A stretch of 64,000 nucleotides of DNA from a virus (Duplodnaviria > Caudoviricetes). The notes under the pieces were generated by a model. It made no database searches. It was not told the origin of the DNA and saw only the letters and a program-made list of their open reading frames with translations. This document shows positions 1 through 64,000 of this stretch, one piece after another. The position numbers and the translations under genes are program-made. The stretch's first letter is position 1, and every line of letters starts with the position of its first letter. Where the stretch lies: IMG/VR virus record IMGVR_UViG_3300026077_000001; one strand, given 5' to 3'.

Positions 1-1331
1 AATCTGATACTGAAGGTGAAAATATACCAGATAAAGCAGCATTAGATGCTTGGGGTGAAGGTTTAGGATACGCAAAAGAGTCATTTAAACAATTTAACAC
101 ACCTATTCAGTCTGAATATGTCTCTGGGTACATTAAAGCTACTGATTATGACCCTGATGAAAAGACAAAATTCTGTGATCAGGTACCTGTTGCGTGTTTA
201 AACCCAGGTGTAGGTAAAGGATGGACAAATTTAAGCACATATCTTGATCCAAAAGCATATCAGAGTCAAATTTTGAACGCTGATGCAACTTGGGGACAGA
301 ATGATGCGTTTATTTCGGATTCTGTATCGAATTCTGTTGACAATGCTGATTATGTTGAGAGTAAAATGGCTGCTGGAATGCCTGGAATGTTTGGTGGAGA
401 CTGTTTAGAGACATTTCAGACCAAATTTTATCAAGTTAGGCGTTTCTTTGACATACCTTGTCCATATGTTGCATTCAATCAGTACGGTGAAAGCACAACT
501 TATGGGTATCTACCTTACAAATATTGCGGAAGTAAGGAAGAATTCGCTCAAGTACGTGTATCAATGTGGTGTGAAGGTGATGTTTCCCAAAAAGGTGAGG
601 TAATTAACCAGAGATTCTTAGATTGGTTGGAGTCTTTACCCAAGCCTTCTTACACAAAACCACGCCCAGCTGGTCCAAATGATAAATCTCACTCCTGTAC
701 ACGTGGTTCTTCGGTAAAAGGACGGTGTTTTAGTTCAGGTGGTGGTAATTATACGTTCGTTCCTAGTGCTGGTGATGAAACTACATTCGATTTCTATGGA
801 ACAGAGCTCGAGAAACTCGCTACTTGGGTTGGTCCTGACAACTATACGGCGTATGGAAGTGGTTCTATAAGCATCTATGATACTATGAATGGTCAAACAT
901 ACAATCATACGTACAATACTATCCAGTTAGATAGCTGTACCAACAACAAATTCCCAGATCTTTGTTGGCATAACTTTGTTGCTGATGGTGTTTTGGACGT
1001 ATATAGTGGATATGATGCTAATGGTAATGGTTTGGCAAGTGATGATATCTGTACAGGGCAACCTTTCTCTAACCCCTCTACGTGGGTACAGAGCAGCAAC
1101 CTTAATGAATATGGTCAATGTGCTGCACTACAGAACGTTGTGCACTCTACAGTAGCATTTGATACAGGTAAAACTACAGAAGACAATCCATACATAGAAA
1201 TAGGACCGTGGAATGGCAAGATGCACTGGGCAAACTACTTACCTGGAGCAACAAACCTATTAGAAGATTCAATTAAGAGATGGGGTAACCCATATTTCGA
1301 TGAATGTGATTTAACTAACCAAGATCAATAA
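1..1331 (+). CDS. 5'-truncated Cys-rich putative structural protein upstream of PAAR
   Basis: The frame of the 273..1331 ORF is open back to position 3 (SDTEGENIPDKAALDAWGEG...), so the TTG at 273 is not the true start. Its stop overlaps the PAAR ATG (TAATG). Confidence 0.7.
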   Translation, partial: SDTEGENIPDKAALDAWGEGLGYAKESFKQFNTPIQSEYVSGYIKATDYDPDEKTKFCDQVPVACLNPGVGKGWTNLSTYLDPKAYQSQILNADATWGQNDAFISDSVSNSVDNADYVESKMAAGMPGMFGGDCLETFQTKFYQVRRFFDIPCPYVAFNQYGESTTYGYLPYKYCGSKEEFAQVRVSMWCEGDVSQKGEVINQRFLDWLESLPKPSYTKPRPAGPNDKSHSCTRGSSVKGRCFSSGGGNYTFVPSAGDETTFDFYGTELEKLATWVGPDNYTAYGSGSISIYDTMNGQTYNHTYNTIQLDSCTNNKFPDLCWHNFVADGVLDVYSGYDANGNGLASDDICTGQPFSNPSTWVQSSNLNEYGQCAALQNVVHSTVAFDTGKTTEDNPYIEIGPWNGKMHWANYLPGATNLLEDSIKRWGNPYFDECDLTNQDQ

Positions 1332-1864
1332 TGGCATTAGGACTCTTACGACCAGTTGCACACCATAATGGACTACCCTGTTCAGGGCACGGTGTGCCTA
1401 TTCCTTCAACAATACACAGTACACAGACTTGCGGTACACCACCGATTCAGCTGCCTATTATTGTTAAGGAGAAGACTTGTATGTGGCCTCCAATGCCACT
1501 AGTCCCACTTACTGCCATAAACCCAATGAGGGCAACGGTTCTCGTCAATGGTTTACCAATTATGATCTTTGGTGATCAATTTATACCACATTTATCACCA
1601 ACAACCAATATTATCAATTATCTTTGTCCTTGTGGTAAAGCAACTTGTGTTATTCCAACTCCAACCGTTTGCAGTCTCATTACAACAGAGGATATGCTAG
1701 GTAAAGGACATTGGAGACTCCTTTATGCTACTACAAAAACAGTTTTAGCATTTAAGATCCCAATAGGACGTATTATGGATCCCCTTGGGTATGGAATGCC
1801 AGGTAAAAGTTGGCCTTGTTCATCAGTGGTTGCATTTGGTAGTCCAAATGTGTTAGCATCATAG
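1331..1864 (+). CDS. PAAR-like spike-tip protein (gp5.4-like), extended
   Basis: Motifs CSGHG, WPP, VLVNGLP..GD.F.PH, GH.R, IGRI.DPLG, PCSSVVA.GSPNV; located just upstream of gp25. Confidence 0.75.
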   Translation: MALGLLRPVAHHNGLPCSGHGVPIPSTIHSTQTCGTPPIQLPIIVKEKTCMWPPMPLVPLTAINPMRATVLVNGLPIMIFGDQFIPHLSPTTNIINYLCPCGKATCVIPTPTVCSLITTEDMLGKGHWRLLYATTKTVLAFKIPIGRIMDPLGYGMPGKSWPCSSVVAFGSPNVLAS

Positions 1865-1880
1865 AAACAGCAAACGCATT

Positions 1881-2033
1881 ATGGCAGTAAAAACCAAATC
1901 AGGTGCTTGGGGTTCTTCTACCTTTGTTGAAGCAACACCTAAAAAGACCCGTCAAGGGATGGGTAAGCACACTAAATTGAGTGCAACTTCAAGAAACAAA
2001 GCAAGGAAGAAGTACCGAGGACAAGGAAAGTGA
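1881..2033 (+). CDS. 50-aa highly basic protein (not in ORF track)
   Basis: Hand translation: MAVKTKSGAWGSSTFVEATPKKTRQGMGKHTKLSATSRNKARKKYRGQGK. It fills the gap between PAAR and gp25. Confidence 0.75.
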   Translation: MAVKTKSGAWGSSTFVEATPKKTRQGMGKHTKLSATSRNKARKKYRGQGK

Positions 2034-2040
2034 CTAAATA
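2034..2040 (+). promoter_or_regulatory. T4-type late promoter motif (CTAAATA)
   Basis: Intergenic TAAATA about 28 nt upstream of gp25. Confidence 0.6.
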
Positions 2041-2067
2041 GAAATACGAATACAATAATACCGCCTA

Positions 2068-4559: not shown

Positions 4560-4586
4560 GACAATAAAATAGCAGAATAACAGCAG

Positions 4587-7500
4587 ATGAAGGCTATTAC
4601 CGTCTCAAATAGGGTGCAGGACCAGATACCTGCATTCATACGAGAAGATAACGAACAATTTGTCAATCTTCTTTCAGAATACTATAGATCTCAAGAGAAA
4701 TCAGGTCGTCCGTATGACATACTGAATAATATCTTAAGATACACTGATATAGGTTCTGGAGAGTTTGATCCTAATTTCCTATCTTCACAATCTGCTGTGT
4801 TGGAGAAGGTTGATCCTACTCAAAAGGATATTGTTGCTGAGAACGTTAATTATTTCTTAGAGAAAGATGGTACGGTACAAATTGATAATGAGGTAATTTA
4901 TTACGAGTCTGTTACTCATTCTCCTGACATTGTATTCACTCCTGGTGTTAATAAGGCAGAATTTGATCGTAAAATACAAGAATTTGAACCAATATCTTCA
5001 CAATTTGATAATAGTCAGACTTTATTTAATCTTAGACTTTTAGGTAAGCCAGTTTCACCACAAACTGCTGATCATCTCTTAGTTGTTGTAAATAACGAAT
5101 TTTTATTCCCAAATATCGACTATTTTATCGAAGGTGATAAGATACGTCTTCAGAACCCTCCTGCTCCCCCTACAGGAGAACTTACAGGTGCTATTAATAC
5201 TATTCGGTACCTTATTGGTTACACAAGCATCCCAGTACGTTCTATAGACACTATTACTGTTAGTGGTGATTCTAAAGAATTTAATTTAACGAACAATAAT
5301 AACAAATATACTCCATTATCAACTGTTTCAACTATAGTTGTTGTAGACAGAGTAGAAAAGCGTCCTTATGAAGATTTTACTATCTTCGAAGATAAGTTAA
5401 TATTCAAGAATGATGTTGCAGAGAATTCAGTCATAAATCTCAGATCTATTGAGATGATAGCACCTGAGTTCGGTGCTGGTGCTACTGCTATTGCAGATAT
5501 TGAACAAGGTGTTGTAGATAAGGTTATTGTTAAGAATGGTGGTAGTGGATATAGACTAAGTTTTGCTCCAAAGATCAGTATTGCGTCTACTAAAGGTCCA
5601 GGATTCGGTGCTACTGCTGAAGCATTAGTAAATGGTATTAAAGATACTAGATTACTCTTTTCAGGACAAGGTTACTCTGCTAACAACCCTCCTATCGTTG
5701 TAGTTGACCCTCCAGTGGATCCTGAAGGCAAGACTGCTCAAATTAGGGCAATTGTTGATGATTCTATTGAAGGGGTCTCACAACTCATTGTAGACAGTTC
5801 TGGAAGTGGTTACGATAAGATTCCATCTATCAGTTTTGTTAATCCTGGTGGTGCAACCATTACTCAACCAACACTTCACACAGGATCCATCCAAGATGGG
5901 TCTATCACTGTTGTAGAGAAGGGTTCTGGATACACAACTCCTCCTTTGGTTTATTTGGATCTACCAACTGGTGATAATGCTATAAGAGCAAACGTTGTTG
6001 CAACTATTGATCAATATGGACGTGTTAATGGAATTACTGTTGTATCAGGTGGACAAGGATATGTAACAACACCTAGGGCAAAGATTATCGATCCTGTAGG
6101 TGCTCAAATACTTGATGTTTCAGTTACTGGTGGTAGAGTTACTAATATTGAACTATTAACTGGTGGTGCAGGTTATACTGATGCTCCATCTGTGTATATT
6201 GTTGATAATAGGAAGGATATTGCTGGTGCACCAGCTGGTGGTACTGGAGCAACTGCTGTTGCAACCATATTCAACGGAGAGATTACTGATATCAATATAA
6301 CCAGTTTTGGAAGTGGATACTCTTCTGCAGAACCACCTAAAGTCTTTATCGCTGCTCCACCTGCTCCAGAAGCGTCTTGTGACGTTGGATTTGGTGAGAT
6401 TACTGGATTTACCATCCATAATGGTGGATCTGGATATCAACCATCTGCTTTTGTTAATTGTAAGCGTGGTGTTTCATCTGTAAGTTCATTTGATCAGAAA
6501 GGTAATCAAGTTTACTCTAAAGAAGCGGATACTGTTCAGTCTTCTCACGAGGTTGGGTCTACAATACATAACCTCGATACACTATTTGCTAAGGAATTAT
6601 ACAGAAGGTACGTAAATCAATATCTTCCTAATGCGGAAATTGACTATGAAAAGGTAAATGCTCCGCAAATTATCAAGACTATTAGTGATTTCTACGCATC
6701 TAAAGGTACGAAGATCTCTACACAGTACCTCTTTAAGATGCTATTCTCTGAAAATGTGGATGTATCTTATCCAAAAGATGAGGTTATTAAGCCATCTGCT
6801 GCATCTTGGAACGTAGATACAGTACTTCGTGCGGAACTTATGAGTGGAGATCCATCTGATCTTCTAGATGCACAGTTAATTCAGTATGTAGATCAGGTAG
6901 ATATCAATGTTAAAGGTGCATCTGCACTGATTGAGAACGTTATATCCATCAATACTGGTGTAGGAACCATATATGAACTTGCTATATCCGAGGAAACACT
7001 ACAAGGTACATTCACTATACCTTACAAAACAACCCTTGTAGAATCACTTAACACTACAGAATCGATCATTACTGTTGACTCTACGATTGGTTGGCCTGAA
7101 AGAAACGGTACAATCCTTATTAATGACAATGAGGAGGTACAGTACAAGGAGAAGACTCTTAACCAGTTCATCGAATGTACACGTTCTGAGAACGGTGTTG
7201 TGGAGGATTGGGACGCAGGTACCACAATTTACTCAGAAATTTTTGTATATGTGAATCGTGGTCTTCCAAATGAGATAAAAATGCGTGTTTTGGGTATTGC
7301 AGATGCAAAATCCACCGTATTGACCAACACAGGATCATATTACTTACCAGGTGACAAACTAAACGTTGCTTCTCTTGGATCTACTTCTGTTGATCAACGT
7401 ATCACTTCTTGGTTGTATAACGTTAAGAAACTGATCAATGTTACTGGAATTGTACCTGGCGGACTTAATAACCAGACTGCAACCGTAACTTGCTCTAATA

Positions 7501-10500
7501 AGCACGGTCTTCTTGTTGGTGACACTGTTACTATCTACGGTGCAAACCCAACTGTGTTCAACGGTACGTTCCTAGTAACATCACGTATTAGTGATTTTAT
7601 CTTTGAGTATAACATTCCTGCACCTGCAGATGCTTCACCTCAAGGTAATATCCTCTTATCTGTTGACTTGAACAAAGGTAAGTCTCCAGAAGAGGGAATT
7701 AGTATTGCAATTAGAGATTTTACTACAAACGTACAGAATACATTCTTCAACAATACGTATGCTTACATAGCATCTTCTGGTATTCCTAACTATGAGGTTG
7801 GTCCTTTTGTTGGATCTGCACTACTTCCAGGTAACCAGCGTAAGTTAATCCGTATTCCTAGAGTTATCAATACGATTTCCAAACGTGATGATACCAACTT
7901 TGGTCCTATTGGTGCGTGGGTTAATGGTGTATCTGCGTGGTCATATAAGTCAGAAACCAAGATTAAGTATGGTGGTGTAATTGGAATTAATATTACTAAT
8001 GTTGGACAGGGATATGATGCAGCGAATCCTCCTATTATTGAAATTAGTGGAGGAAATGGTACAGGTGCTACTGCTAGTGTTGTTGTTAACGGACAATTAA
8101 GTGAAATTGATGTTTCTGCGGGGGGTACTGGTTACACTTCTAGTCCTCTTGTTTCTATCGTGGGTGGTGGTGGATTCGGTGCAACTGCTACTGCTGTTAT
8201 TACTAATGGTATAGTTTCTAAGATTCTTGTTGAAAACCCAGGTCAAGGATACACTTCTCAACCTGATGTCTCTATTTCAGGTGGAAATGGTACAGGTGCT
8301 ACCGCAACTGCACGTGTAAGAGGTCCAATTCAATCTGTAAGTGTAGATAATGCAGGTTCATCTTATACTGAATCTCCTACTATTAAGTTAAACTCTGGTG
8401 AAGGTGCTGTTGCACAAGCAATCATTATTAACGGTCGTATAGTTTCTATTGCTATCATTGCTGCAGGTAAGGGATATACCACTGCTCCTGAGATTGTAAT
8501 CAATGGTGATGGTTATGGTGCTGTTGCAAAAGCAAGTATTGGTACTGTTGGTGAAGATAGAGGTAAGGTCATTGGTGTTACTGTGGTCAATAGAGGTATT
8601 GGTTACACTACTGGACTCACAACTGTTAGATTAGAAGCAGTCGGTGAAATGGCAACATTTACTGCAAATGTGTTTGAGTGGACAAGAAACCTACAAGATG
8701 AGTTAGGTCAATCTTTCGATACAGCACGTGGTTACGTATTTGCAGGATATAACACTCAATATGGTGGTGAATACGCACATTTATCAGATCCTAAGCAGTT
8801 GCGTTATGTTTTGGGTGATAATGTCTTTAAGAACCAAGCAACACAACAATTACAAGAATTATCTACAGGATGGCAACACTCACCAATCCTCGGATGGGCA
8901 TTTGATGGTAACCCCATTTATGGTCCTTATGGTTACATAGATGCTACTGACCAGTCTTCTGGTATACGTCGTATTAGATCTTCTTACCGTATCAAGCCAA
9001 TTCTAATATATGACCTAGCAACCAACCCTAATCCAGTTCGTTCAGATGGTCCTTTACTAAGTGACTATCCTGCAGGTTCATTTATCGAAGATTTTGAGTA
9101 TACTTTCCAATATGGTGATCTAGACCAGTATAATGGTCGTTTCTGTAAGACACCTCAATTCCCTGAAGGTGTATACGCATACTTTATCTCAATTGACGCA
9201 TCTGATGCAGGTAATCCAGTATTCCCATATATTGCTGGTCCTCAGTTATATTCTAAGGCAGATGAGTGGAACTACAGTCAGGATGCTGTACAGACAAATA
9301 TTCCTGATGATGTTGTTCGTTTCCGTGATCCTTACGAAGATGTTGATATTGATATTGAACGTCAACCAAACCAAGACACTGATATCCTTGTAACTGAACT
9401 TGGTGAGGAACTTATCTTTGAAATTGAAGATACTAATAGAGACGGTGTAATCAATAACCTTGAAGATACTACACCAATCAATATCGCTGAAGAACCAGTA
9501 TTACAATTATTTGATTACTACCCTAGAGTCTCTACAAGATCTGAGGTGGATATTGATATTGAGACTACTACCAAGTTTGAGGATGCTCAGGTTGATGGAT
9601 TTGTTGTTGAGAACCCAGGTATCTCTTATAAGGTTGGTGACAAACTATATTTTGATAATACAGACACACAAGGATTTGGTGCATCTGCTAAGGTTAATTC
9701 AGTTAAAGGTCTTGATGTAGCAGGTTATTCGTCTTATATGACTAATGACGTACCTTACGGACAAATTACAACTGCTACTGAACACGAATTACGTGCTAAC
9801 GATGAAATTATCGTTAAGAGCACACCTGTTCTTGATGATACTAATAAAACTCTTAAAGTTAAGGTTATTGCTGGTGTAGAGCAATTAAACATTACACAGG
9901 AAGGTGTTGGTTATTCTTCTGAACTTCCTCCAACATATGAACTAATTTCTACAATTGGACAAGATTTCAAGTTAACTTTAGAAAGAACTGAAGCGGGTGC
10001 TGTTAAGAAAGCAAATATAATCAACTCTGGTTCTGGATATGACTCAACAAATCCACCTAAGATTCGTGTATCACATCCACAGAGATATAAGAAGGCAAAT
10101 TACTTCTTATCATTCTTGAATGAAGCAACTGGTACTGTTTCTATAAATGACGTTCAAGTTGCTGATGATCGTACTATCTACGTTGCTGCTGAAAGAAATC
10201 TTGCTGATGGTGATACTTGTGGTATTCTTGCTAAGTTTAATAGTGATGGTCGTTTACTTTGGCAGAGAACCCTAGTACCTACAGTACCTTCTGGTCCAAA
10301 ATCACTAAGATGGAAGTCTTTATATGTTGAGAATAGTAATCCTCATAATATCTACGTAATTGGTGAGACAGTTACTAACATCACAAATATTACTTACAAC
10401 CCAGATATTGTTGTTGCTAAGTATACTTCAGGATTTGATAATGCAAATAACCCTGATGGTATTCTTCAGTGGCAACGTGATATTGCTGGTATCTCTGGTG

Positions 10501-13500
10501 CTACAAGAAGAGATTATGCAACTACTATTTCATTAGATCAAGACGGTAGAACTATGATCGGTGGTTATACCGATGCTAACTCCTTGCAACCAGATGATAT
10601 GTGGGTTGCATTATTAGATCTTGATGGATCTATGATGGAGAAACGTAAGATTGCTTCTACTGATGTTAGTGAGCATTTACATCAGATAAAGTGGAAATCT
10701 AAGGATACCTTCCTATTCTGTGGTGTATCTGAACCTGATAATACATCTGACATCATAATTGGTGAAACTTATTATGATACTGCAACTATTGAGGTTGTAT
10801 GGTCTAAAAAAATCACTAATGCCAGTTATAAGTTTAAGAACCCAACATTCACCATTGATGAATATGGTGCTGTATATGTAACTGCTACAGCAGAAGATAC
10901 TAATGGTAAGGATTATGGTGTTTTATACACCAAGTTTGATGATGGTGACTTTACAGCAGCTGAGCAAAGTAGAATATTTGTTCCTACTGGAACCTATAAT
11001 GCTGTTCATAATGGTGGTGTAGAGTTTGATATCTTTGGTAATGTTGATGTATCTTGTTCTGTAGAAAGAGCATTTAATCAAGTTGAATCCACTACTCTTA
11101 AGATTGGTTGGAATACAGGTACAGTAATTACTGCTTCAACTGCAACTGAGACTGATGGTATTGGATTTAAAGCAATTGCTGTATCTAACGACAGTTCTGG
11201 TGACACAATTGTTGTTGGTAATAAGGTAGAAGCAGATCAGTTAGCGATATTTAACTGGAATACTGCTGATAACCTTGCTGATGACACATATAATGATACT
11301 CTTGCTACTGGAACTAACAAACAGTGGTATGCAACTGGTAATGCTGTAATTGATGATACTAAGAAGTATGATGGTGCTTCTTCAGTAAAACTAGATGCAT
11401 CTAATGCTATGACGATGCTCTATGGATCAGATGTTGCTACAAGCTATACTGTAGAAGCATTTTGGGCACTTTCAACTGCTCAGTATACTGCTGCTAACAC
11501 AAAACCAGAATTCTTCACTGTAACTGATGCTATAGGTAATACAGTTAAAGCTGGTCTTGATGCAGATCAGACAAGTCCCAACTATGGTAAGACTTGGATT
11601 GATATAACTGGTACTACAACATTCTCCACTGCTGCAAACTACCTAGCAATCTTTAATAACGAGGAGTTTATTCACGTTGCTTTAGTTAAAGATCGTGTAG
11701 GTGTTGGTGATTACAAGTATCGTGTATATGTTAATGGTATTGAAACACAGGTACTTACAAGTACAACAGTTGATATTAACCTTAAAGATGTAACAATTGG
11801 ATCTAATTCAACTCCTAACGCAACAAATAACTGGATTGGATGGATTGATAACCTAGTTGTCTCACCTACTGCTAAGTATGATGATACATTTACTTCTGCT
11901 TTAGTTACTGGTACTAATAGTATTGCACAAGGATTTGTTTATAAGATTGATAAGGACAAGACAGCATTAGGATCATTCAATCTTAACGATGTTGAGACAG
12001 GACATACCTTTAATATCGCCTCTGAGAGCAATTATACGTTTAATACCCAGAACGTTGCAATGAATCCTTGGACTATTGGTCCTGCTGGTATTCAAATTCT
12101 TGATTATGGTGATGTTATTTCTACACATCAGCCTGGTATATTCACTGTATCGTCAACAGATCAGTCATTTGGTAACAGAACTGCTACTATTCCGACTCCT
12201 GGTGGTAAGAAACTACTTCTTACAACGACTGTTGTACCAAAATTCTACTTTAGAGACGCAAAATATCAGTTAATTGACCTTGTTAAGACAATTAACTTCA
12301 ATCAGGCTGCTACTTTCACTAAGGGATCTATATTACAACAGTATTCAGTCATTGGTGGTAACGATGTTGTCTCTGGATATGGAACAATTGTTGAAGTTGG
12401 AACTCAATCTTGCAAGATTGGTAAGATTGCAGGTAGTTTTGACACTACAAAACTAGTAAAATCAACTGCTAATGATGTAAATGACCTTGAATGGAACTTT
12501 ACAGAGCAAAAGACTGACCCAATTTGGGCAACTAACTTTGTATATGCACAAGAAGACATAGTTTACAACGATAAGAAGCTATATCAGTGTACCTCTCCTG
12601 GTACATCTGGTACTATTGCACCTACTCATACAACTGGTATTGTATCTGATGGTGCTGTTTCTTGGGCATATTTGTCTGCATCTGGCATATATGAGGTAGA
12701 TTTAGCAAATACTTCATATAGTGGTTCTACTTTAGGTGCATTTGCTTCTTGGAAAGAATTCTCAGCTGAGGATTACACTATCAAGATCGAAGAAATATAT
12801 CAAGACTCTTCATTCATTAAAGGAGATACCATTGATGCCGATGCTGTTAATCTTCAGTTTGCTGTTGATGCTACTGGTAAGATTGCAACATTCACTGGTT
12901 TGACTGGTGTTAAGAAGATATCCTTGATTGCACAACTTAATAAGGACGTAATTCCTAGTGGTTCATTAGTAAATACTGACCTTGTTTACTGTTCTGCTTC
13001 TAGTAGACACAATTTTGTAGAAAATGAGATCATATTTACAGAGAACTTTGCTACAAATGACTATAATGGTTCGTTCTTCGTAGAAGAGGTCTTTAACTCA
13101 AGAGACTTCTCATTCCGTATGAGAGGTACTGCTGTACAGGATCCAACCTTTGCTGGTAGTGGAAATTCAGTATCTAACGTTAATATCTACGCAAAACATC
13201 CTAAATTCCTCTTTGTTAGAGGTCATCAGTACATATTTGACCTTGATGATGAATCTAACCTTGGATACTTCCTATCATTTTCTAGAGATAACCAGTATAA
13301 ACTGGAATATCCATTCATTAATATTATTAGAGAGGGTACACCTGGATTTACTGATGATGATTCACCAACTCCGTTGGTTAAATTCGTCATTAATGAGGAT
13401 GTTACTAATATTTCATATTACTTTGACCCATCTAGAACAGGTGCAGATTCACCAGTTGGAGAAGGATCCTTCATTGACGTTATTAAATCTCCTTATGATG

Positions 13501-16500
13501 GCACATTCAGAGTTACTTCTGTAACCGATGCTGGTAAAAAATTCGCCTTTAGACTATTAAATGAACCTGAAAAGACAAATGCTCCTGTTGGTAATAATGA
13601 ATTTGGCAATGCTCGTTCTTCTTACTCAACAACCTCAGTTAAGGCAATTGGTCCAATATCTGATATCAAACTTGTAAATGCAGGTGGATTCTATCAGAGA
13701 CTACCAATTGTTACTGATATTGCTTCTAACAGAGAAATTGAGAAGGTTAGAATCACAAATGGTGGTACTGAGTACGTAAATGGTGTTTACTATAACGTTC
13801 CTATTGATGGAGATGGTGAAGGTGCTATGTGCAACATCACTGTTCAAGATGACGGTGACTTTGAAGGTGTTATAACTGATGTTGTCCTTACATCTGCAGG
13901 TAAAGGTTATAAGACTGCTTCTATTGATGTAGATGCTATACCAGGTATCCTAGGACCTTTACTTGCAGGTTCTGGTGCAGTACTAGATGTTGTCATTCCT
14001 GATGAAGGATCAGGTGCATCTGTATTCTTACAAGGTAAATCAATTGGTAAGATCAAGAAACTTAAGAATAATGAGTTTGGTTTCGGTTATTCACACGATT
14101 ATACACTGAGACCTGAAATAACTTTCCCTGTGAACCTTCAGCTGTTTAATACCGCTTTACTCGCACAGATCAAGATAACTGACCCAGGTGCTGGATATAC
14201 TTCAGTTCCTGCTGTTGTAATTGAAGGTGGTGGTGGATCAGGTGCTAAGGCAGAAGCAATTGTTAAGAATAATCGTCTTTCTGAGGTTATTATTAAGGAT
14301 CCTGGCTCAGGATACAGTTCTGAACCTTCAGTTACACTTAAATCAGAATTTAACTACGTTGTTAACGTTGATTTAGGTTATTTACAGTTCAACTTCCCAC
14401 ACGGTATCACAACTGGTGCTGAAGTTCAGTTAAGAGCAGAAGACCTAGGATCAACCGTAGGTATTCTTCCAAAACCTAGTTCTGCAGGTTTGGTTAGCTT
14501 GAACTCAAATCAGACATACTATGCTATTGCTGGTGAAGCAAATTCACTTGAATCAGACCAATTACGTATCTCTCTAACCAAGTTAGATGCTGAATCTGGT
14601 TCTTATATCACATTCTTGACTCAAGGTGAAGGTAGACAGGTACTACTCACCGAGGTATTTGGTGGTAAAGCAACTGCTATCGTTGAAACTTCTAGATTCC
14701 TTGCAGGTGAACTTGTTTATCAGGGTACTTCACTTGAACTCGCATCTGCTACTGGTTATGTTTCTACTAACGAAGGTTGGCAGATTGGACCTAGAATCCT
14801 TAAACTTGAGAACTATGATGGTGTTTGGAGATCTGGAGAGCGTGTAACTGGTGAAGTTTCTCGTGCATCTGGTTTGATTGATAACCTATCAATCGCTACT
14901 GGTACACTGAATATTGCTTCTCTAACCAATACTCCTGGTCAATTTATCGATGACGTTGGTAAACCATCTGAAATTGTTCAAAAAATACAAGATTCTTACT
15001 TCTATCAGAACTTCTCATACGTTATTAAGTCTCAAACACCTATTAACCAGTGGAGAAAGCCTGTATTAGAAACAAACCACCCTGTTGGTTTCAACCTCTT
15101 CGGTGAACTAGCAATCACTGGTGGTAAGGATATTTCTGGAAGAAAGGTTGTATCTGACCTTATTAAAGAAGTTAATATCAATAGTTTCACTAATATTAAT
15201 CAAATTACATCATTTGCTAACGCACAACCCATTTATACTCAGTTTAATAATACTGAGGTACTGTTCAGACAGAAGAGATTAACTAACTCAGAGGAAATCT
15301 TAACCTCTATCGTTAAGAAGATTGATAACATCTCTGATGACTTTGATGGAATTAAAACCCAATTCCCTCTTAATGTAGAAGGTAGTTCCATAACTGCAGC
15401 AGATAATCAGATGTTTATCTTGATTAATGGTGTTGCACAGTCACCAGGTACTGCATTCTCAACAGCTGGACCTTCTGTTGTCTTTACTGAAGCACCTAAA
15501 GCACCTTCTAGAATTAAGTTCCGTGAAGCAGTTTATGCTCAGAAAGTAATCACTAGAATGACATTCAGTTCTATTGGTGGTATTTTCCCACTTTTAGGTA
15601 ATACTGTTCGTGGTTTGGTATCAGAAGCAACTGCAACTTGCATAGATTCAGGTGTTGACTATATTGACGTTATTGACATACAAGGAACCTTCCAACTTAA
15701 TGAAAGTATAATGGGTTCACAAACTGGATTCAATTCTACTTTAAGTGATGTTTCTCCTATAACTTCTAAGACTATCTACGAACAAGGTGAGAGAATCACT
15801 AATTTGGCTGGTAATTTTGCTATTATTGAAGAGAATAACTTACAAGATGGTGTTATTACTAATGAACTAGTTCTTTCACGTACTTCTGGTACTGCTAAGT
15901 ATGAGACTGGTGAATTTAATATCAAGTTCAATGATATCATTTATTCTGCACGTTCTAAGATTGCAGCAACTATTACAAGTATTGCACCTTATCAGGATGA
16001 TATATCTAACCAAATTATTGATCAGGTAGACCTATCACCTAGTTCTTCCTTCTTTGGATTAGTATTCCAGAGGGTACCTTCTATTACCTTCCCTAATAAG
16101 ATACTTGATAACATATCAGAAACAGTTATTAACCCTGTTGAACTATATGATCCTGAGACAGCTAATAACCAAGACTTCCTAGACTTTGAGAGAGTTCGTA
16201 ACCAAGAGATACGTTATGACAATTTAACTGGTACTGACTTTGCTGCTGGTTCTGACATTCGTCTTAAGAAGATTTACTTTGGTAATTCATCTCTAAGAAG
16301 GACTCACGATGTACGTCTTAATGATGCTTCTAACGCTTTGCAGCGTAATGCGAGATTTATCGCTGAAGAAGCCGTGGGAGCAATGTTAGATTTCTACCCC
16401 TCCTTCCAAATCAATACTGGTAGAAATGCAGATTGTGAAGATGATATTGTAGATGCTATCAATATGATGGCTTGGCAGTTAGAGTTTGATGGTAACTCTG

Positions 16501-19500
16501 AAGTTTGGGATATTGCTAATACTTACGTTCAAGGTAACACTGTATATCACGTTGATGGTGCTGAAGCTCAAACAGTTTGGGCAATGAATAAAGCACGAGA
16601 CTTAGCACTCCAGTGCATAAGAATGGAGGATATTGATACTTCATTTACTACATTACAGCAGTGGAGAGACTTAACTGTTACTGGTGAGTATAGTGTAACT
16701 GATAATAGTCACGCTGATGCTAGAGCACTATTACTTGCTAACAAGTGGTATATCGCTCACGAAGCATTGTATTATGCTAAACAACAGAATCCTGGTTATA
16801 CAGTATCTGGTGGTGACTCACATTGCTTGTCAGATATAGTTGATGTTGTTGAAGCAATTGCATATAACACTGCTGTTGGTGGTAATGACTTTGTTTGGGA
16901 AGCAACAGATCGTATTCTTCATTATGGTACTGTAACTGGTGATATCGATACTATGGTAGATGCCTTTACTAAGGCAAGAGATATAGCAATTAATGTTCAG
17001 AGGAACGTTGTATATGCCAAGCAAGATACTTCACACGGTTGGACACAATTTACTGATAGTGGTATTACTGCTGATGGTGCATCTCCTGCTTGTCAGGCAC
17101 CTGCTGCAACAATAACCACCCTAGCGAATATTCTGATTAATGCCCTAGGTACTACTGCATCACCTGGAACTAGAGCAGCATTCCAAGCTGGAACAACGAA
17201 GACTGAACCATCTACTGCTTTGATGGCAAATCCTTCTACAACTGCTTGTGTAAACGTAACATCTGCTATTACTAATTACTTTGCAATTATCACTGATTCA
17301 TTACAGGATCCAACTGGTGCTGCACCTGGAACTTATCCTTGGTCTATTTCAAATGTAACTAGAGTTGCACCTCCATATTCATTCAGTGATTCTGAGACAC
17401 TTAAGTCTATTAAGCACGCTTATAAAGATAAGTCTTCTGGTGGATTCTTTGTCTTCGGTGAAATTGTTAAAGGTATAACATCTGGATCTACTGCTGAGAT
17501 CATTGGTTCTAATGCAGGTAATAAGTGGATCTATAGTAAACAACCTTCAGGAGCATTCAATGATGGAGAATACATTACTAATAGTCTTTTAGTTAATACT
17601 AACGTAACTGTAGATAATTTAGATTATGCTGCTGGTGCTGGATCTCTTGAATTTAATGGTAGTGCATATCTAACACATCCATCTACTGAGAAAGTTGCAT
17701 TTGGTGATGGATCTATTCCTGATGGTAACTTCACTATAGAATTATGGGTTAAAGCAACAGGTGTTAGTGGTAACCAAACATTATTAGATTTCCGTACTTC
17801 AACTGGTGATACAAGTTCTGCTTACTTGATTATGGTCAATAACACTGTTCGTTGGAACACTGGTAATGTTGACAGAATAACATCAAGTGCAAATCTAGCA
17901 GCAAATACTTGGACTCATATCGCTATCGTAAGAAATAGTGGTGCTACAAATATGTACGTTGGTGGTACTAAGCAAACCACAACTTATACTGATAACACCA
18001 ATTATGGCAATATGCCAGTTAAGATTGGTGCTAATGCTGCTAATGCTCAAGCATTTACAGGTAATATGGAGAACCTAATGATTAAGTTAGGTTCTACTGC
18101 TGTTGATTATACTAGCGACTTTACTCCTAGTGGAACTTATGATGATACAGATATAAATCTTAAGTTTGGATTTAATGGTGAAGCACCTATTCCTATTATT
18201 AAGGGTGAAATTTATGCTACATTCCAACAAACTATAACTTCTACTGCTACTGCTGAGGGTGTAGAACTATGGCGTGATGAGATTATGACTGAGGGAGTTG
18301 ATCTTTCTCGTGATGATTATGTTGATTGTGCAGATATTATTGACAAGAACAAGTACTGGATTGCTGAAGAAGCAGTCGGTAGAATGAAGGCTATGTATCC
18401 TGACTTTGTGATACCTGGTGATACTGGTACTTCAGATCAAGGTACACAAACTTGCTTAAGAGATACTTATGAATACATTATACCTGCTATCGTTAATGAT
18501 CTAAGGTATGGTGGTAACTTTAATAGTATCGTTGCTGCAAGAGGATATCTTGCTAACCAAGAAGGACAATTAGCACACGTTAACGGAGAATTGCTTCAAT
18601 CCATCTATGCTTGGAGAGAAGTTGGTAAACTTTGCAATACTGTTATTACTGCTAATGCTGATGACCTAACTGGTGAGCATACAACACGTATTCGTATTCC
18701 TAACTACTTCTCATCTCCTGCAGCTGCTGGTATACAGACCTTTATTACTGATCTAGTAGATAGTTTACTATTAGTTCTTGGTCCTACAGGTAATAGATTT
18801 AGAGATGGTGCTGATTTACTATACTTCAACCGTAAGTGTATCGCTGATGAAGTTGCTTTCTGGTTAGAAGAACAGTATAACGTAACTATTAACTTCATTC
18901 AGGAAGATAAGTTTGACATTCCTGGTGGTACTCCAGGTCGTGATAAGTGTGTTCGTGACCTTAGAGATCATATTATACCTGCTATTGCTGGTGACTTATT
19001 AACTGGTGGTAATGCTAACGTTCAAGGTATTATTGATCAATACTTAGATTCTACAGGTAAGATCATTCAAGTTGAAGAAGAATTACTTCCAATGCTTGAT
19101 GCAATTGGTTACTCTAAGATGTTGATGGAGAAGGCACTACAGAATGCTTTAGTTGGACGTAGTGAAAACCTTGCAAATCTTGCTGGTACAACTGCTCAAA
19201 CTATTGACGACTTCTTCCAATTCCAATATACAGATTTCGCTGCATTCCGTAAGGATCAGGCAACTGAACCTACCTTCTTACACGATCCTCAAATCTATGC
19301 AGGTTCTCAGAGAGCATTAGATGCTGCTGATATGCTTGAAACTAATAAGCGTGCTATTGCAGGTGAAGCAGTTGATCTTATGCTTAAGTGTTCTGCATTT
19401 AAACATTATCACTTCAGTGTTAAAGGTGGTAAGAATCATTGTGAAGATGATATTGTTGACGTTATCGAAGCTATCATTCACGACCTTAGATTCAATTCTA

Positions 19501-32122: not shown

Positions 32123-32125
32123 ATA
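32119..32125 (+). promoter_or_regulatory. Late promoter motif (ATAAATA)
   Basis: Overlaps the stop codon; 25 nt before the ATG at 32150. Confidence 0.65.
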
Positions 32126-32149
32126 AAACTGTAGAATAACCCCCCTACT

Positions 32150-33811: not shown

Positions 33812-33814
33812 TAA

Positions 33815-35698: not shown

Positions 35699-35704
35699 AC
35701 CCAG

Positions 35705-35712
35705 TATAAATA
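35705..35712 (+). promoter_or_regulatory. T4 late promoter consensus TATAAATA
   Basis: Exact consensus, intergenic, 22 nt before gp8. Confidence 0.8.
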
Positions 35713-35733
35713 AAAGGAAGGCACAAGCAGCCA

Positions 35734-56473: not shown

Positions 56474-56480
56474 GAGAATC

Positions 56481-57155: not shown

Positions 57156-57292
57156 TCGTCTGGTCAGTAATTTGGATGGTTGGAATCCTTATCGTAGCGG
57201 TAGGGGTGGTTCTCGTATACATATTTCAGTACGATAATTGGTATCCTAATTATGGGCAAGATGACACCACCAAGCAGAAAGAGCTGCTATAA
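57152..57292 (+). CDS. 46-aa single-TM protein
   Basis: MIVWSVIWMVGILIVAVGVVLVYIFQYDNWYP...; ATG 57152 preferred over 57098. Confidence 0.6.
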   Translation: MIVWSVIWMVGILIVAVGVVLVYIFQYDNWYPNYGQDDTTKQKELL

Positions 57293-57797
57293 CTTTAGAG
57301 TAACGGAGATTAATCGTGTTGTTGACGGCGATACTATTGATGTCACCATTGATCTTGGGTTTGACTTATACAAGAAAGAAAGAGTTAGAGTTGCAGGAAT
57401 TGATACGCCAGAAAAAAGAACAAGAGACTTGGAAGAGAAGGCACTGGGAATAGATGCAACTAATTGGCTCAAAGGAACGTTAGAGGATACTATTAATGGA
57501 GATGATGAACTTACTATACGAACCGAACTTAAAGGTGGTATGGGTAAGTACGGTAGGCTTCTTGGCTGGTTATATGTTGGCGAAGACGATGTATCATTGA
57601 ATGAACAGATGATCGAAGAAGGTTATGCTTGGGAGTATGATGGTGGTACAAAGAATAAGAACTTCGAAGAATTAAGAGAGATACGTAAAAAATTAGGTAC
57701 ACTCGTTGAAGAACCGACAGAAGGTGATCCACTTCCTGAAGTTGGTGATGGATTTGTGGGTGGTACAGGTACATCTAACATTGCAGGTCCATTCTAA
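57252..57797 (+). CDS. SNase/thermonuclease-like nuclease
   Basis: RVVDGDTIDV, RVRVAGIDTPE, GKYGRLLG and LNEQMIEEGYA motifs. Confidence 0.85.
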   Translation: MGKMTPPSRKSCYNFRVTEINRVVDGDTIDVTIDLGFDLYKKERVRVAGIDTPEKRTRDLEEKALGIDATNWLKGTLEDTINGDDELTIRTELKGGMGKYGRLLGWLYVGEDDVSLNEQMIEEGYAWEYDGGTKNKNFEELREIRKKLGTLVEEPTEGDPLPEVGDGFVGGTGTSNIAGPF

Positions 57798-57800
57798 TTT

Positions 57801-59450
57801 ATGGCAGAGAACCAGATATATCTTGGTAACCCGAATCTAAAGAAAGCAAACGTTGCCACAAACTTCACACCTAAACAGGTGAAGGAGTTTATTAAGTGCA
57901 GCAAAGATCCAATCTACTTTATTAAGAAGTATATTAAGATCGTTTCTTTGGATGAGGGTGTTATCCCATTTAACCTCTATGATTTCCAAGAGGATATGGT
58001 GAATCGTTTTCATACCAAACGATTCAATATTGCTAAGCTTCCAAGACAGTCTGGTAAATCAACGGTTGTAACATCGTATCTACTTTGGTATGTAATTTTT
58101 AATCCTAATGTCAACGTCGCAATCCTCGCAAACAAAGCAGCCACTGCAAGAGAAATGTTGGGTCGCCTACAACTTTCTTATGAGAATCTTCCTAAATGGA
58201 TGCAGCAAGGTATTATTGGCTGGAACAAAGGGTCAGTGGAATTGGAGAACGGAAGCCGTCTCTTGGCTGCAAGTACTAGTGCTAGTGCTGTTAGGGGTAT
58301 GTCCTTTAACGTTATATTTTTGGACGAATTCGCATTCGTTCCGAATAATATTGCAGAGCAGTTTTTTAGTTCTGTGTATCCTACTATATCTTCTGGTAAG
58401 TCCACAAAGGTTATTATCATTTCTACCCCTCACGGGATGAATATGTTCTATAAACTCTGGCACGATGCAGAGCGTGGTACAAATGAATACACACATACTG
58501 AGGTACATTGGTCTCAGGTTCCAGGCAGAGATGCTGAATGGAAAGAACAAACCATACGTAATACATCAGAGCAACAGTTCAGAGTTGAGTTCGAATGTGA
58601 ATTCCTAGGATCTGTTGACACATTAATATCAGCATCTAAACTAAGAGCATTAGCTTATGATGATCCTATAACCAGTAGTAAAGGACTTGACGTTTATGAA
58701 GACCCTATCCCTGAACATAATTACACAATTACGGTTGATGTGGCACGAGGTATCGATGGAGATTATAGTGCTTTCACTGTATTTGATACTACTACAATTC
58801 CTTATAAATTAGTTGCCAAATATAGAAACAATACAATTAAACCCCTTATCTTCCCAGATATTATTGTTGAAGTTGCTAAGGGATATAATGAAGCTTACAT
58901 ATTAATTGAAGTTAATGACGTTGGTGCACAGGTAGCAGACATCGTTCAGTACGATTTAGAATATGAAAATTTATTGATGTGTGCTATGAGAGGACGTGCT
59001 GGTCAGGTAGTAGGTCAAGGGTTCTCAGGTGGTAAGGTACAACTTGGTGTTAAAATGAGTTCTACCGTGAAGAAGGTAGGGTGTTCTAACCTTAAAGGAT
59101 TAGTAGAAGACGATAAAATACTTATTAATGATTACGATACTATCGCTGAACTAACCACCTTCATTCAAAAGGGTCAATCTTGGCAAGCAGAAGAAGGGTG
59201 TCACGATGACATAGCAATGTGTTTGGTTATGTTTGCGTGGTTATCTGTACAAGATTATTTTAAAGAACTTCACGACAATGATGTTCGTAAGAGAATGTAT
59301 GAAGAACAGAGAGAAGCAATAGATGCTGATATGGCTCCATTTGGTTTTATTAGTGACGGTATGGATGATGAATCATTTGTGGATGGAGAAGGAGATCGTT
59401 GGCACGTAGATGAATATGGGGATAGAGCATTTATGTGGGAGTACCGTTGA
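57801..59450 (+). CDS. gp17: Terminase large subunit gp17
   Basis: Walker A LPRQSGKST, Walker B VIFLDEFAF, IISTPHG, nuclease DVARG and HDDIAM motifs. Confidence 0.96.
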   Translation: MAENQIYLGNPNLKKANVATNFTPKQVKEFIKCSKDPIYFIKKYIKIVSLDEGVIPFNLYDFQEDMVNRFHTKRFNIAKLPRQSGKSTVVTSYLLWYVIFNPNVNVAILANKAATAREMLGRLQLSYENLPKWMQQGIIGWNKGSVELENGSRLLAASTSASAVRGMSFNVIFLDEFAFVPNNIAEQFFSSVYPTISSGKSTKVIIISTPHGMNMFYKLWHDAERGTNEYTHTEVHWSQVPGRDAEWKEQTIRNTSEQQFRVEFECEFLGSVDTLISASKLRALAYDDPITSSKGLDVYEDPIPEHNYTITVDVARGIDGDYSAFTVFDTTTIPYKLVAKYRNNTIKPLIFPDIIVEVAKGYNEAYILIEVNDVGAQVADIVQYDLEYENLLMCAMRGRAGQVVGQGFSGGKVQLGVKMSSTVKKVGCSNLKGLVEDDKILINDYDTIAELTTFIQKGQSWQAEEGCHDDIAMCLVMFAWLSVQDYFKELHDNDVRKRMYEEQREAIDADMAPFGFISDGMDDESFVDGEGDRWHVDEYGDRAFMWEYR

Positions 59451-59463
59451 AACAGAGGGAATC

Positions 59464-59470
59464 ATAAATA
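59464..59470 (+). promoter_or_regulatory. Late promoter motif (ATAAATA)
   Basis: Intergenic; followed by a GGAG RBS and gp18. Confidence 0.7.
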
Positions 59471-59513
59471 ATTTCAAGACTAATTGATAGAATTTTTCAA
59501 GGAGATTTAAACA

Positions 59514-62294: not shown

Positions 62295-62325
62295 TTTCAA
62301 GAGAACTAATTAAGGAGACACACAA

Positions 62326-62997
62326 ATGGCAGAATCACAACCAGGACAGGTAGAACAATCGGCGGTCAGAGCCCCGATTTTCTCCTTCCGTGACCAAGTA
62401 AGGGACTTTGCTCGTCCCAATCTGTTCCAATGTGAGATCTATGCACCTCCTGTCCTACAGGATGGAGTAACACCACAGTCAGGTGGTGTATCAGGATCAT
62501 CATCAGAAGGAGTAGAGAACGCAGCAGGAGGATCACAACTCAATGCATCAGAAGCATCTGCTTTTGGTACCTTCCTTGTGAAGGCAGCAAACATTCCAGC
62601 ATCTACTGTTGGAGTTGTTGAGGTTCCCTATCGTGGACGTATGCTTAAGATTGCTGGAGACCGTAACTTTGAACCTTGGACTGTAACCGTACTTAACGAC
62701 CAGTCATTTAAGTTCAGAGCATTCTTCGAATCTTGGTCAACAAACATCCAAGCATTGCAACAGAATTTCCAGAACTCTAACACCATCGCTGATTATCAGG
62801 CAATGGCAAAGGTTAGACAGATGGATAGAAAAGGAAAGATCATTCGTACCTATAGGTTCGAAGGTATTTGGCCATCTAATATCAGTGCTATTGATTTAGA
62901 TTGGGGTAACAATGACACACCAGAAGAGTATACTGTAGAGTTCCAAGTTCAGTACTGGACATACGATACAGACATCAACACTGGTAACGCTGGATAA
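62326..62997 (+). CDS. gp19: Tail tube protein gp19
   Basis: ARPNLF, AANIPAST.G.VEVPYRGR.LKIAGDR.FEPWTVTV.ND, EYTVEFQVQYW. Confidence 0.95.
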   Translation: MAESQPGQVEQSAVRAPIFSFRDQVRDFARPNLFQCEIYAPPVLQDGVTPQSGGVSGSSSEGVENAAGGSQLNASEASAFGTFLVKAANIPASTVGVVEVPYRGRMLKIAGDRNFEPWTVTVLNDQSFKFRAFFESWSTNIQALQQNFQNSNTIADYQAMAKVRQMDRKGKIIRTYRFEGIWPSNISAIDLDWGNNDTPEEYTVEFQVQYWTYDTDINTGNAG

Positions 62998-63013
62998 GCG
63001 GTTCACAACCCTG

Positions 63014-63020
63014 CTAAATA
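63014..63020 (+). promoter_or_regulatory. Late promoter motif (CTAAATA)
   Basis: Intergenic, 24 nt before the gp20 ATG. Confidence 0.65.
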
Positions 63021-63043
63021 GTAGGTCAGACAAAACGAGATAG

Positions 63044-64000
63044 ATGTCACAACTTTTTGGTTATTCTCTTGAACGAGCGAAGAAGGGTCAGGCTACTGGC
63101 CCTTCTTTCGTGCGTAAAGAGTCAGATGATGCGGCTACACCAGTCGCAGGTGGAGGGTACTTTGGTACCGCCATTGATCTTGATGGAACATTTAAAGATG
63201 AGAATGATCTCATCCGTCGTTATCGCTCTATGTCAATTCATCCTGAATGTGACAGAGCAATCGATGATGTGGTCAATGAAGCAATTGCAGGTGATGTAGA
63301 TGATACACCTGTAGAAGTAGAACTAAGTAATTTAAAAGTCGGTGCTGGAATTAAGAAGCAAATCAGAGAAGAGTTTGTAAACTGTCTGAGACTTCTTGAT
63401 TTTGACAAGATGGCATATGATATTTTTAGACGTTGGTATATTGATGGGAAGTTATACTATCATAAAGTAATTGATGTTAAGAATCCCCGTGGTGGAATCA
63501 CGGAACTTAGGTATGTGGATCCTCGTAAGATTCGCAAAGTCGTGGAGATGGAGAACAAGAAGGATAAACAACATCTTGATCCACGTACACTAGAAGCTAA
63601 CTTAGCTCCTAAGACTGCAGAGTACTACGTGTACAATCCCAAGGGGATGCGTGCAGGTATGGAGACTTCTGGTATGAAGATTGCACCTGATGCAATTTCT
63701 TTCTGCCACAGTGGTTTGAAAGATATGAATAAGAATGTGATTATGTCACATTTGCACAAGGCAATTAAAGCACTTAACCAGCTGAGGATGATTGAAGACT
63801 CGCTGGTTATCTATCGTTTGAGCCGTGCACCAGAACGTCGTATTTTCTACATTGATGTAGGAAATCTTCCAAAGCAAAAAGCAGAACAGTACCTCCGTGA
63901 GGTAATGTCTCGCTATAGAAACAAGTTAGTATACAACGCAGATACAGGAGAAATAAGAGATGACAGAAAATTTATGTCAATGCTCGAAGACTTCTGGTTA
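63044..64000 (+). CDS. gp20: Portal protein gp20, 3'-truncated (not in ORF track)
   Basis: Hand translation MSQLFGYSLE...LIRRYRSMSIHPECDRAIDDVVNEAI; contains IYRLSRAPERRIFYIDVGNLPK and ends MLEDFWL at the window edge. Confidence 0.95.
   Translation, partial: MSQLFGYSLERAKKGQATGPSFVRKESDDAATPVAGGGYFGTAIDLDGTFKDENDLIRRYRSMSIHPECDRAIDDVVNEAIAGDVDDTPVEVELSNLKVGAGIKKQIREEFVNCLRLLDFDKMAYDIFRRWYIDGKLYYHKVIDVKNPRGGITELRYVDPRKIRKVVEMENKKDKQHLDPRTLEANLAPKTAEYYVYNPKGMRAGMETSGMKIAPDAISFCHSGLKDMNKNVIMSHLHKAIKALNQLRMIEDSLVIYRLSRAPERRIFYIDVGNLPKQKAEQYLREVMSRYRNKLVYNADTGEIRDDRKFMSMLEDFWL

Follow-up and report, generated by a model that had tools for sequence, protein, structure and literature searches.

The DNA analysed here is a 64,000-nucleotide stretch, IMG/VR record IMGVR_UViG_3300026077_000001 (hereafter the window), in which the tetramers CATG, CCGG, GCGC and CGCG do not occur at all. 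Its genes assign it to an uncultured oceanic T4-like cyanomyovirus, a member of the Kyanoviridae, which probably infects Prochlorococcus and is close to the isolate P-RSM6. Selection against short palindromic sites of the restriction type is strongly supported, and the best explanation overall, which we put at a probability of about 0.55, is a composite fingerprint kept by purifying selection against cleavage of the four palindromes. Selection on synonymous codons and codon junctions would keep the DNA free of these words, a newly arisen site presumably being cut by a dimeric type-II-like endonuclease with loss of the phage. We infer which enzymes would cut which word. Avoidance of CCGG would be old and common to almost all cyanomyoviruses sampled; that of GCGC and CGCG would be tied to infecting Prochlorococcus, the pressure being met inside NATL host cells; and the loss of CATG, specific to the lineage, would most likely be a defence against the phage's own early nuclease of the PvuII fold, beside which the small NPPF amino-methylase of sister phages here appears to be missing. 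Such an unguarded nuclease would cut host or rival DNA, and the phage itself would offer no target.

Tetramers were counted exactly, with overlaps, over the whole window. The four words, all of them palindromes, are the sole absentees among the 256 tetramers, so that the claim of an earlier note on this DNA that they were missing is borne out. The note had also remarked that GATC, GTAC, TGCA and GGCC occur; they do (332, 324, 361 and 7 copies), but GGCC is itself depleted, and a depletion of AGCT was not on its list. Expectations came from the codon-preserving comparison that the note had proposed, in the form of 300 shuffles of synonymous codons within each gene, which keep every protein and the codon usage of each gene. 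The zeros fall far below what these shuffles predict, and GATC, GTAC and ACGT are in slight excess:

1..64000, both strands: whole window without CATG, CCGG, GCGC and CGCG, with AGCT, GGCC and TCGA partly depleted (exact counts, shuffles and a control with tetramers of G and C only)
CATG: observed 0, expected 102 ± 7, lowest shuffle 83
CCGG: observed 0, expected 43 ± 6, lowest shuffle 29
GCGC: observed 0, expected 18.6 ± 4, lowest shuffle 10
CGCG: observed 0, expected 14.6 ± 3.5, lowest shuffle 5
AGCT: observed 82, expected 288 (3.5-fold depleted)
GGCC: observed 7, expected 22 (about 3-fold depleted)
TCGA: observed 93, expected 167

Avoidance of all four words needs no amino-acid change. None of the 245 methionine codons is preceded by a codon ending in C, though 14% of codons do so. 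Histidine before a codon starting with G is written CAC 79 times and CAT never, and elsewhere CAT 138 times and CAC 58 times. Where serine, proline, threonine or alanine precedes TGN, 0 of 94 codons end in CA, against 34–44% generally, and alanine in that position is encoded by GCT (19) or GCG (5). These codon-pair counts, taken over all genes, confirm the examples given earlier by eye (CAC for histidine before G, no GCA for alanine before tryptophan), and the equivalent junctions do not occur once for CCGG, GCGC or CGCG either.

The words lost are defined by their symmetry. Among the 16 tetramers composed of G and C only, the four palindromes are the most depleted, with ratios to expectation of 0, 0, 0 and 0.32, and the non-palindromic ones, those containing CpG included, stand at 0.42–1.06. 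Since CpG-containing non-palindromes remain in this range, general CpG depletion cannot explain the zeros; the avoided words are palindromes of the type II kind and not a by-product of composition. A scan of the window for degenerate palindromes of 5–6 bp gave no further purged word beyond a general depletion of the RGCY type. The candidates GRCGYC (0 against 6.6 expected) and AGSSCT (0 against 7.3) were not significant after multiple testing, and CAGCTG is not specially enriched among the surviving AGCT sites (15 seen, 34 expected by shuffle). The synonymous shuffle also reveals non-palindromic biases: TTTT (144 against 412 expected) and TTTC (169 against 390) are avoided, and TGCT is in excess (643 against 415), perhaps from swaps of xxA-GCT to xxT-GCT that dodge AGCT.

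Close relatives reveal that this selection is ongoing. One of them, G001 (32 kb), has 900 differences from the window. When substitutions of the same kind and codon position were placed at random in 300 simulation runs, they were predicted to create about 14 CATG, 7 CCGG, 4 GCGC and 3 CGCG; none is seen, and the zero-site outcome arose in 0 of 300 simulations. Relatives at 2.8–10.6% divergence hold no or very few new sites, against 29–144 expected. A 102-kb contig of the window's lineage (G409), 94% identical at the overlap and reaching about 88 kb upstream of the window, has CATG 0 times against 496 expected and CCGG 0 times against 74 (expectations from dinucleotides), with one GCGC and one CGCG. 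A more diverged relative (G005) likewise has no CATG or CCGG; it holds four GCGC and three CGCG, and the constraint on these two words is therefore somewhat weaker. Given that relatives 92–98% identical to the window retain the zeros despite substitutions that should have produced dozens of sites, purifying selection on synonymous codons and codon junctions continues.

We compared this fingerprint with that of other cyanophages, sampled as 80 terminase-anchored IMG/VR loci together with 40–50 kb regions of isolates. The fingerprint is a mosaic that changes quickly among lineages. Hardly any of the terminase-anchored cyanomyovirus contigs has CCGG, and among 11 isolate myoviruses only Syn9 has it, in one copy. 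GCGC is missing in five of the six sampled Prochlorococcus myoviruses (P-RSM6, P-TIM40, P-SSM4, P-SSM7, P-SSM2 and P-HM1) and CGCG is absent or scarce in four of the six; in P-TIM68 too few GCGC are expected to judge avoidance. Both words are present in the Synechococcus myoviruses Syn9, S-WAM1 and S-SZBM1. Within this sample, complete loss of CATG is confined to the window's lineage and a handful of further clades, all uncultured. Further words are purged in other lineages, namely TCGA (L054, L056, L062), ACGT (L077, L078), AGCT (L020, L024, L069, L095) and GTAC (L028 and P-TIM40). A scan for association between clusters of open reading frames (ORFs) and motif status over 105 loci was discarded, being confounded by the anchor gene of each locus.

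Several uncultured contigs add to the variety. Another CATG-free cyanomyovirus lineage, about 72% identical to the window (G417, comprising L399–L404, 112 kb; and G418, L405–L407), has CATG 0 times against 490 expected, CCGG 0 against 58, GCGC 0 against 49, AGCT 8 against 384 and CGCG 21 against 34; its contig stops just short of the expected position of the PvuII-like gene. This lineage was considered as a downstream extension of the window on the strength of an exact 26-mer, and was rejected as a different CATG-free lineage at that level of identity. The cyanomyovirus contig L242 (IMGVR 3300030117_005760) has no CATG, GGCC or AGCT and almost no GCGC, and is an exception to the family-wide purge in having normal CCGG (53 against 46 expected). 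Pooled nuclease-bearing contigs (L177–L256) have 0–2 copies of ACGCGT, AGGCCT, GTCGAC, TGCGCA and GACGTC against 30–61 expected; the near-absence of these 6-bp palindromes from both groups of such contigs suggests further avoided words at the level of the family.

For CCGG, GCGC and CGCG, a host-linked pressure is plausible. The T7-like podovirus P-SSP10 (L408), whose host is NATL2A, has CCGG 0 times against 37 expected, CGCG once against 24 and GCGC 19 times against 47. The corresponding figures in NATL1A-7 (L409), a T7-like podovirus of a NATL strain, are 13 against 37 for CCGG, 2 against 22 for CGCG and 3 against 43 for GCGC. In P-SSP7 (a podovirus of MED4), Syn5, S-CBP1 and the siphovirus P-SS2, all three words occur about as often as expected. 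Two phage families on NATL-type Prochlorococcus therefore converge on the three GC-only palindromes, a convergence that suggests a pressure acting inside those cells. Not one of the podoviruses compared, the NATL ones included, avoids CATG or AGCT, and five further myoviruses from the same NATL strains retain CATG as well. In the whole genomes of P-SSP10 and NATL1A-7, AGCT is in excess (about 385 against 250 expected).

A number of observations weigh against a host origin of this pressure. P-HM1, a myovirus of MED4, avoids CCGG and GCGC and the MED4 podovirus P-SSP7 does not, so host identity alone cannot explain the pattern. Host DNA, sampled as 100 kb each from three Prochlorococcus genomes and one Synechococcus genome, holds all the words near expectation, with about 2,200 copies of CCGG, GCGC and CGCG together per 100 kb in Synechococcus RCC307 and about 190–400 CATG per 100 kb across the hosts (about 190 in Prochlorococcus). 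A host enzyme would consequently depend on a protecting methylase, and most hosts have none: among the 401 genomes of the host family 45 have a C5 methylase, and among the 42 of the host genus 6 have a C5 methylase and 3 an N4/N6 methylase. The HpaII family is represented in 0 of the 401 host-family genomes, and no nuclease specific for CCGG, GCGC or CGCG was found in host or phage.

Type II systems nonetheless circulate in the hosts, if only sporadically. Some host-family C5 methylases adjoin SinI-, EcoO109I-, BglI- or IceA-like nucleases, with specificities that are different or unassigned; the IceA neighbour is a protein of the IceA/NlaIII family. One genome of the genus Prochlorococcus (L411; G433:C20:13980-17502) encodes a homologue of M.HhaI (GCGC; E 3e-113) over its full length; after it, the opposite strand has about 1 kb of broken reading frames that are possibly a decayed restriction gene. 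In four other host-family genomes (L257, L258, L266 and L412) a C5 methylase stands beside a HATPase_c_3 protein, with a Vsr mismatch endonuclease as well in two of them, and about 10 further host-family genomes have a C5-methylase open frame of about 690 amino acids (aa) at a similar chromosomal position; the C5-methylase/HATPase_c_3 region may be a conserved island.

The loss of CATG is likely to be self-avoidance of the phage's own nuclease. The candidate lies on IMG/VR contig 3300026292_000016 (L012), which reaches 13.6 kb upstream of the window:

1..569 of the window, + strand: stretch 100% identical to L012 (blastn)
L012:5398-5916, outside the window, 7.7 kb upstream: ORF of 172 aa, predicted PvuII-fold nuclease (structure model and Foldseek)
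L012:1771-2685, outside the window: N6_N4 methylase (Pfam)

An AlphaFold model of the 172-aa protein, built on 29 homologues, has a mean predicted confidence (pLDDT) of 89.7. Its ten best Foldseek matches are all PvuII (E as low as 5.5e-7, for 1f0o, with a template-modelling (TM) score of 0.64/0.71), and the residues D61, E71 and K73 (D61...E71-x-K73) are invariant or nearly so in the 29 homologues. On this model, the ORF is predicted to have the PvuII fold with a PD...(D/E)xK triad. It was the fold search alone that found PvuII; sequence and profile searches of the protein against the PDB gave no PvuII match. A precomputed match to PF09225 exists in 2 of the 120 homologues listed. A hidden Markov model search for PF09225 in the relatives and lineage contigs was negative everywhere; it missed contigs that hold the nuclease and is therefore insensitive, and we did not use it as evidence. 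The window has 15 CAGCTG sites, so a nuclease cutting CAGCTG would attack the phage's own DNA if that DNA were not methylated; unmethylated CAGCTG is therefore probably not its target.

The link to CATG was examined in 71 assessable IMG/VR contigs, each chosen because it bears the nuclease:

Nuclease only, 35 contigs: CATG absent from 30 (0 against about 2,533 expected in 498 kb), present in 5
Nuclease and a 182-aa neighbour, 36 contigs: CATG absent from 2, present in 34

No palindromic tetramer other than CATG is missing from every one of the 30 CATG-free contigs that have the nuclease only. The neighbour of 182 aa is a small methylase that adjoins the nuclease in 67 of 80 methylase-anchored loci, none of which showed it paired with a nuclease of the IceA/NlaIII type; it has an invariant SNPPF amino-methylase motif and weak matches to Eco57I and EcoRI methylases. 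Both genes are present in P-SSM2 and P-TIM68, which still have CATG (74 of 184 and 73 of 201 expected copies), and P-RSM6, with neither nuclease nor methylase, has near-normal CATG and the same GC-only fingerprint as the window. In searches with P-SSM2 as positive control, the small methylase was not found in a complete CATG-free genome or in the contigs of the window's lineage. The nuclease tree shows only about four changes in each of the two states, nuclease-only and CATG-free, giving 2–4 independent contrasts in the expected direction. Five contigs with the small methylase that have lost the PvuII-like gene (L327, L348, L353, L369, L377) hold 11–17 CATG in 4–8.6 kb, and relatives with the same gene neighbourhood and both genes (L354, L365, L367, L368, L370) hold 0–9; the methylase-only contigs being the richer, CATG depletion follows the nuclease even where the methylase is present.

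Against self-avoidance stand the five nuclease-only contigs that retain some CATG and the two methylase-bearing contigs without it. With only 2–4 independent events a sign test is powerless, and the Fisher p of 1e-12 overstates the association, since the contigs share ancestry. Because all the test contigs carry the nuclease, its necessity is checked on few isolates only. Finally, the 172-aa protein matches no Pfam family even at E ≤ 10, PF09225 included.

The earlier note had suggested looking for phage methyltransferases elsewhere in the genome. One N6_N4 methylase came up among the 87 ORFs of the 102-kb lineage contig; C5 methylases and the small NPPF methylase did not turn up in the lineage contigs searched. 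The N6_N4 methylase of the lineage was rejected as a partner of the M.PvuII type, its nearest solved relatives being M.MboIIA and CcrM. As to the note's idea that GATC might be tolerated through methylation, no Dam-type gene is present in the roughly 150 kb readable from the lineage; relatives carry one. Among 25 of the 44 Pfam families matched by the 87 ORFs, the only nuclease-type entries are a SegE homing endonuclease and a TnsA-like protein. The latter, a PD-(D/E)xK ORF found in all five CCGG-free genomes, was considered as a CCGG nuclease and dismissed as a homologue of the T4 head-completion protein gp4 with counterparts in >2,500 T4-like phages. The first 25 of the 83 PADLOC families matched by these ORFs comprised only methylase models and a 2OG family.

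We tentatively suggest, at odds somewhat short of even, that this phage tells self from non-self by sequence and not by methylation: it would make a nuclease with a 4-bp site (CATG), carry no methylase for it and have a genome scrubbed of the site. If this is true, the nuclease could shred host DNA, which has one CATG per about 500 bp, or the DNA of rival phages. T4-like cyanophages are not, to our knowledge, known to use T4-type cytosine modification, and the unguarded nuclease would then be a cyanophage substitute for the host DNA degradation that T4 bases on such modification. A further enzyme of this type might also lie behind the loss of CCGG throughout the family.

We consider it unlikely that all four words derive from type II restriction-modification (R-M) systems of Prochlorococcus populations, with the PvuII-like gene of the phage merely incidental. 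The convergence of the NATL podoviruses on CCGG, GCGC and CGCG fits this explanation, as do the sporadic type II pairs in the host family (SinI, EcoO109I-like, BglI-like and IceA/NlaIII with C5 methylases, besides the M.HhaI homologue) and the small number of independent events behind the link between nuclease and CATG. Cyanomyoviruses have broad host ranges, so that one phage would meet many R-M systems. It is difficult, however, to reconcile with the retention of CATG by podoviruses and five other myoviruses of the same NATL strains, or with P-RSM6, whose GC-only fingerprint goes with near-normal CATG and no nuclease; moreover, the purge of CCGG extends to almost all cyanomyoviruses, although the HpaII family is missing from the 401 host-family genomes and few hosts have cytosine methylases. 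The original proposal, that the missing words reflect selection against host restriction sites, accordingly holds in part. Selection on palindromes stands (codon null, GC-only control and relatives), and a host source is plausible for CCGG, GCGC and CGCG in view of the NATL podoviruses; CATG, kept by most myoviruses and by the podoviruses of the same hosts, instead tracks a phage-borne nuclease. As a fingerprint of the host's R-M repertoire, the pattern is thus plausible for the GC-only words, probably wrong for CATG and not the read-out of one host.

A further explanation, which strikes us as quite improbable, takes all four words as targets of phage-borne nucleases, either the phage's own or those of co-infecting cyanomyoviruses. 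Such nucleases would shred host DNA for nucleotides or exclude rivals, with loss of sites replacing methylation, and the NATL podoviruses would avoid the words through competition with such myoviruses. In its favour, CCGG loss follows the myovirus family and not any single host, host genomes are rich in the sites (RCC307 for the GC-only words, Prochlorococcus for CATG), and hosts mostly lack the methylases that a host enzyme would need. Precedent exists in the chloroviruses, whose R-M systems recognize sites of 2–4 bp, such as CviAII (C^ATG) and CviJI (RG^CY), and whose nucleases travel in the virion and break down host DNA (PMC7019647). Set against this, the 87 ORFs of the 102-kb contig yielded no candidate nuclease for CCGG, GCGC or CGCG among 25 of the 44 matched Pfam families, and P-SSP7 is unaffected although MED4 myoviruses avoid the words.

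A neutral or mutational cause without selection on cleavage (CpG depletion, deamination of 5-methylcytosine or codon bias) could appeal to the overall CpG ratio of 0.52, the excess of TpG and CpA and the CpG inside three of the four words, but is effectively refuted by the codon shuffle, which still predicts 15–102 copies, by the substitution simulation, exact zeros kept across 3–10% divergence requiring selection, and by the GC-only control, as well as by the over-representation of ACGT, the lack of a CpG in CATG and the absence of a C5 methylase (PF00145) from the contigs G409, G004 and G005 (the window was not searched) and from the complete related genome G411, which removes deamination as an explanation.

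Among known systems, purifying selection on the four palindromes has clear parallels. The GATC-free genomes of Staphylococcus phage K-like viruses are an example of restriction-site avoidance in virulent double-stranded DNA phages, and the classic analysis of such avoidance in phages is said to be that of Sharp in 1986. The phenomenon is well established and the window is an extreme but recognisable case: it, too, shows complete or near-complete loss of type II palindromes, achieved through synonymous codons under selection. It departs from the usual case in losing four tetramers at once, with CATG alone expected more than 100 times in 64 kb, in that the avoided set differs between closely related cyanophages, and in that no cognate host enzyme was found. 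In the late 1980s, Bancroft and Smith reportedly described counter-selection of host restriction sites in cyanophages of Anabaena and Nostoc. Those genomes resemble the window in being without sites for endonucleases associated with their hosts; their hosts, however, are R-M-rich filamentous cyanobacteria with known enzymes such as AvaI and AvaII, whereas the hosts here, streamlined marine picocyanobacteria, seldom have cytosine methylases. We found no report of such a pattern in the literature on restriction-site avoidance in marine cyanophages, and the survey of Rusinov et al. (2018; PMC6286503) makes no mention of cyanophage, Prochlorococcus or Synechococcus.

The closest functional analogue of the mechanism proposed for CATG is the chlorovirus R-M systems. 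In both, a virus-borne restriction-type nuclease with a short site is directed, or proposed to be directed, against host DNA, and CATG and RGCY-type words figure in both. Chloroviruses methylate their own DNA and always have the methylase gene adjacent, whereas in the window's lineage, as read from sequence and a structure model, the partner methylase is missing and the sites are absent instead. With R.PvuII (type IIP, CAG^CTG; PDB 1pvi and 1f0o; PF09225) the 172-aa protein, as modelled, shares the fold and the same Asp...Glu-x-Lys spacing, but it is only 17–20% identical and has no Pfam match. M.PvuII is an N4 methylase; in sister phages the neighbour of the nuclease is the small NPPF enzyme instead.

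Little is known of the ways in which marine cyanomyoviruses, which rank among the most abundant ocean viruses, withstand host defences and break down host DNA. The forbidden 4-bp words form a bar-code, sharply drawn and quick to change, that every lineage has in its own version and that partly follows the host (Prochlorococcus as against Synechococcus, and NATL strains especially), even across phage families. If the host link holds, the bar-code could help to assign hosts to uncultured cyanophage contigs and could reveal restriction activities of Prochlorococcus missed by gene annotation. The CATG part would be a directly testable case of a phage with an unguarded restriction enzyme. What is new here is that phages were compared across families with their hosts matched, together with a caution on phylogenetic non-independence.

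The genes of the window form a T4-type structural module by PHROG and Pfam matches, and all large ORFs are on the + strand. They encode a PAAR-like protein, a gp6-like baseplate wedge and a giant structural protein; wedge and connector proteins like gp8, gp9 and gp10 and two more giants (2404 and 2113 aa); and neck proteins, a staphylococcal-nuclease-like endonuclease, the large terminase, the proteins of the tail sheath and tail tube, and the portal, of which only the start is included. The features to which we refer are:

4587..30377, + strand: structural ORF of 8596 aa, 40% of the window (ORF list)
30377..37269, + strand: baseplate wedge and tail-fibre connector genes, T4 gp8/gp9/gp10-like (PHROG phrog_25852, 677, 22827/708, 438)
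57252..57797, + strand: staphylococcal-nuclease-like endonuclease, upstream of the terminase (Pfam PF00565, E 8e-12)
57801..59450, + strand: large terminase, gp17 (PHROG phrog_2)

The genes like gp8, gp9 and gp10 identify the element as a T4-like myovirus. Its large terminase served as anchor for placing the phage and sampling relatives, and is 78–80% identical by tblastn to those of Synechococcus phage S-SZBM1, Prochlorococcus phage P-RSM6 and S-WAM1. The nearest isolate at the DNA level is P-RSM6 (host Prochlorococcus NATL2A); megablast of the window against the phage collection gave no match, and IMG/VR contigs from ocean metagenomes align to it at 92–100% identity. In P-RSM6, S-WAM1, P-TIM40, P-SSM4 and P-SSM7, the gene in the place of that at 57252..57797 is likewise annotated 'endonuclease'; the window's gene was ruled out as a cause of site-specific avoidance, its fold being that of a non-specific nuclease. 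Much of the avoidance is carried by synonymous choices at codon junctions of the 8596-aa ORF. Together with the ORFs at 37274-44488 (2404 aa) and 44996-51337 (2113 aa), this giant takes up about 62% of the window, and its product far exceeds the annotated gp7-like homologues of about 7,100–7,300 aa in P-SSM4 and P-SSM7, the isolates viewed.

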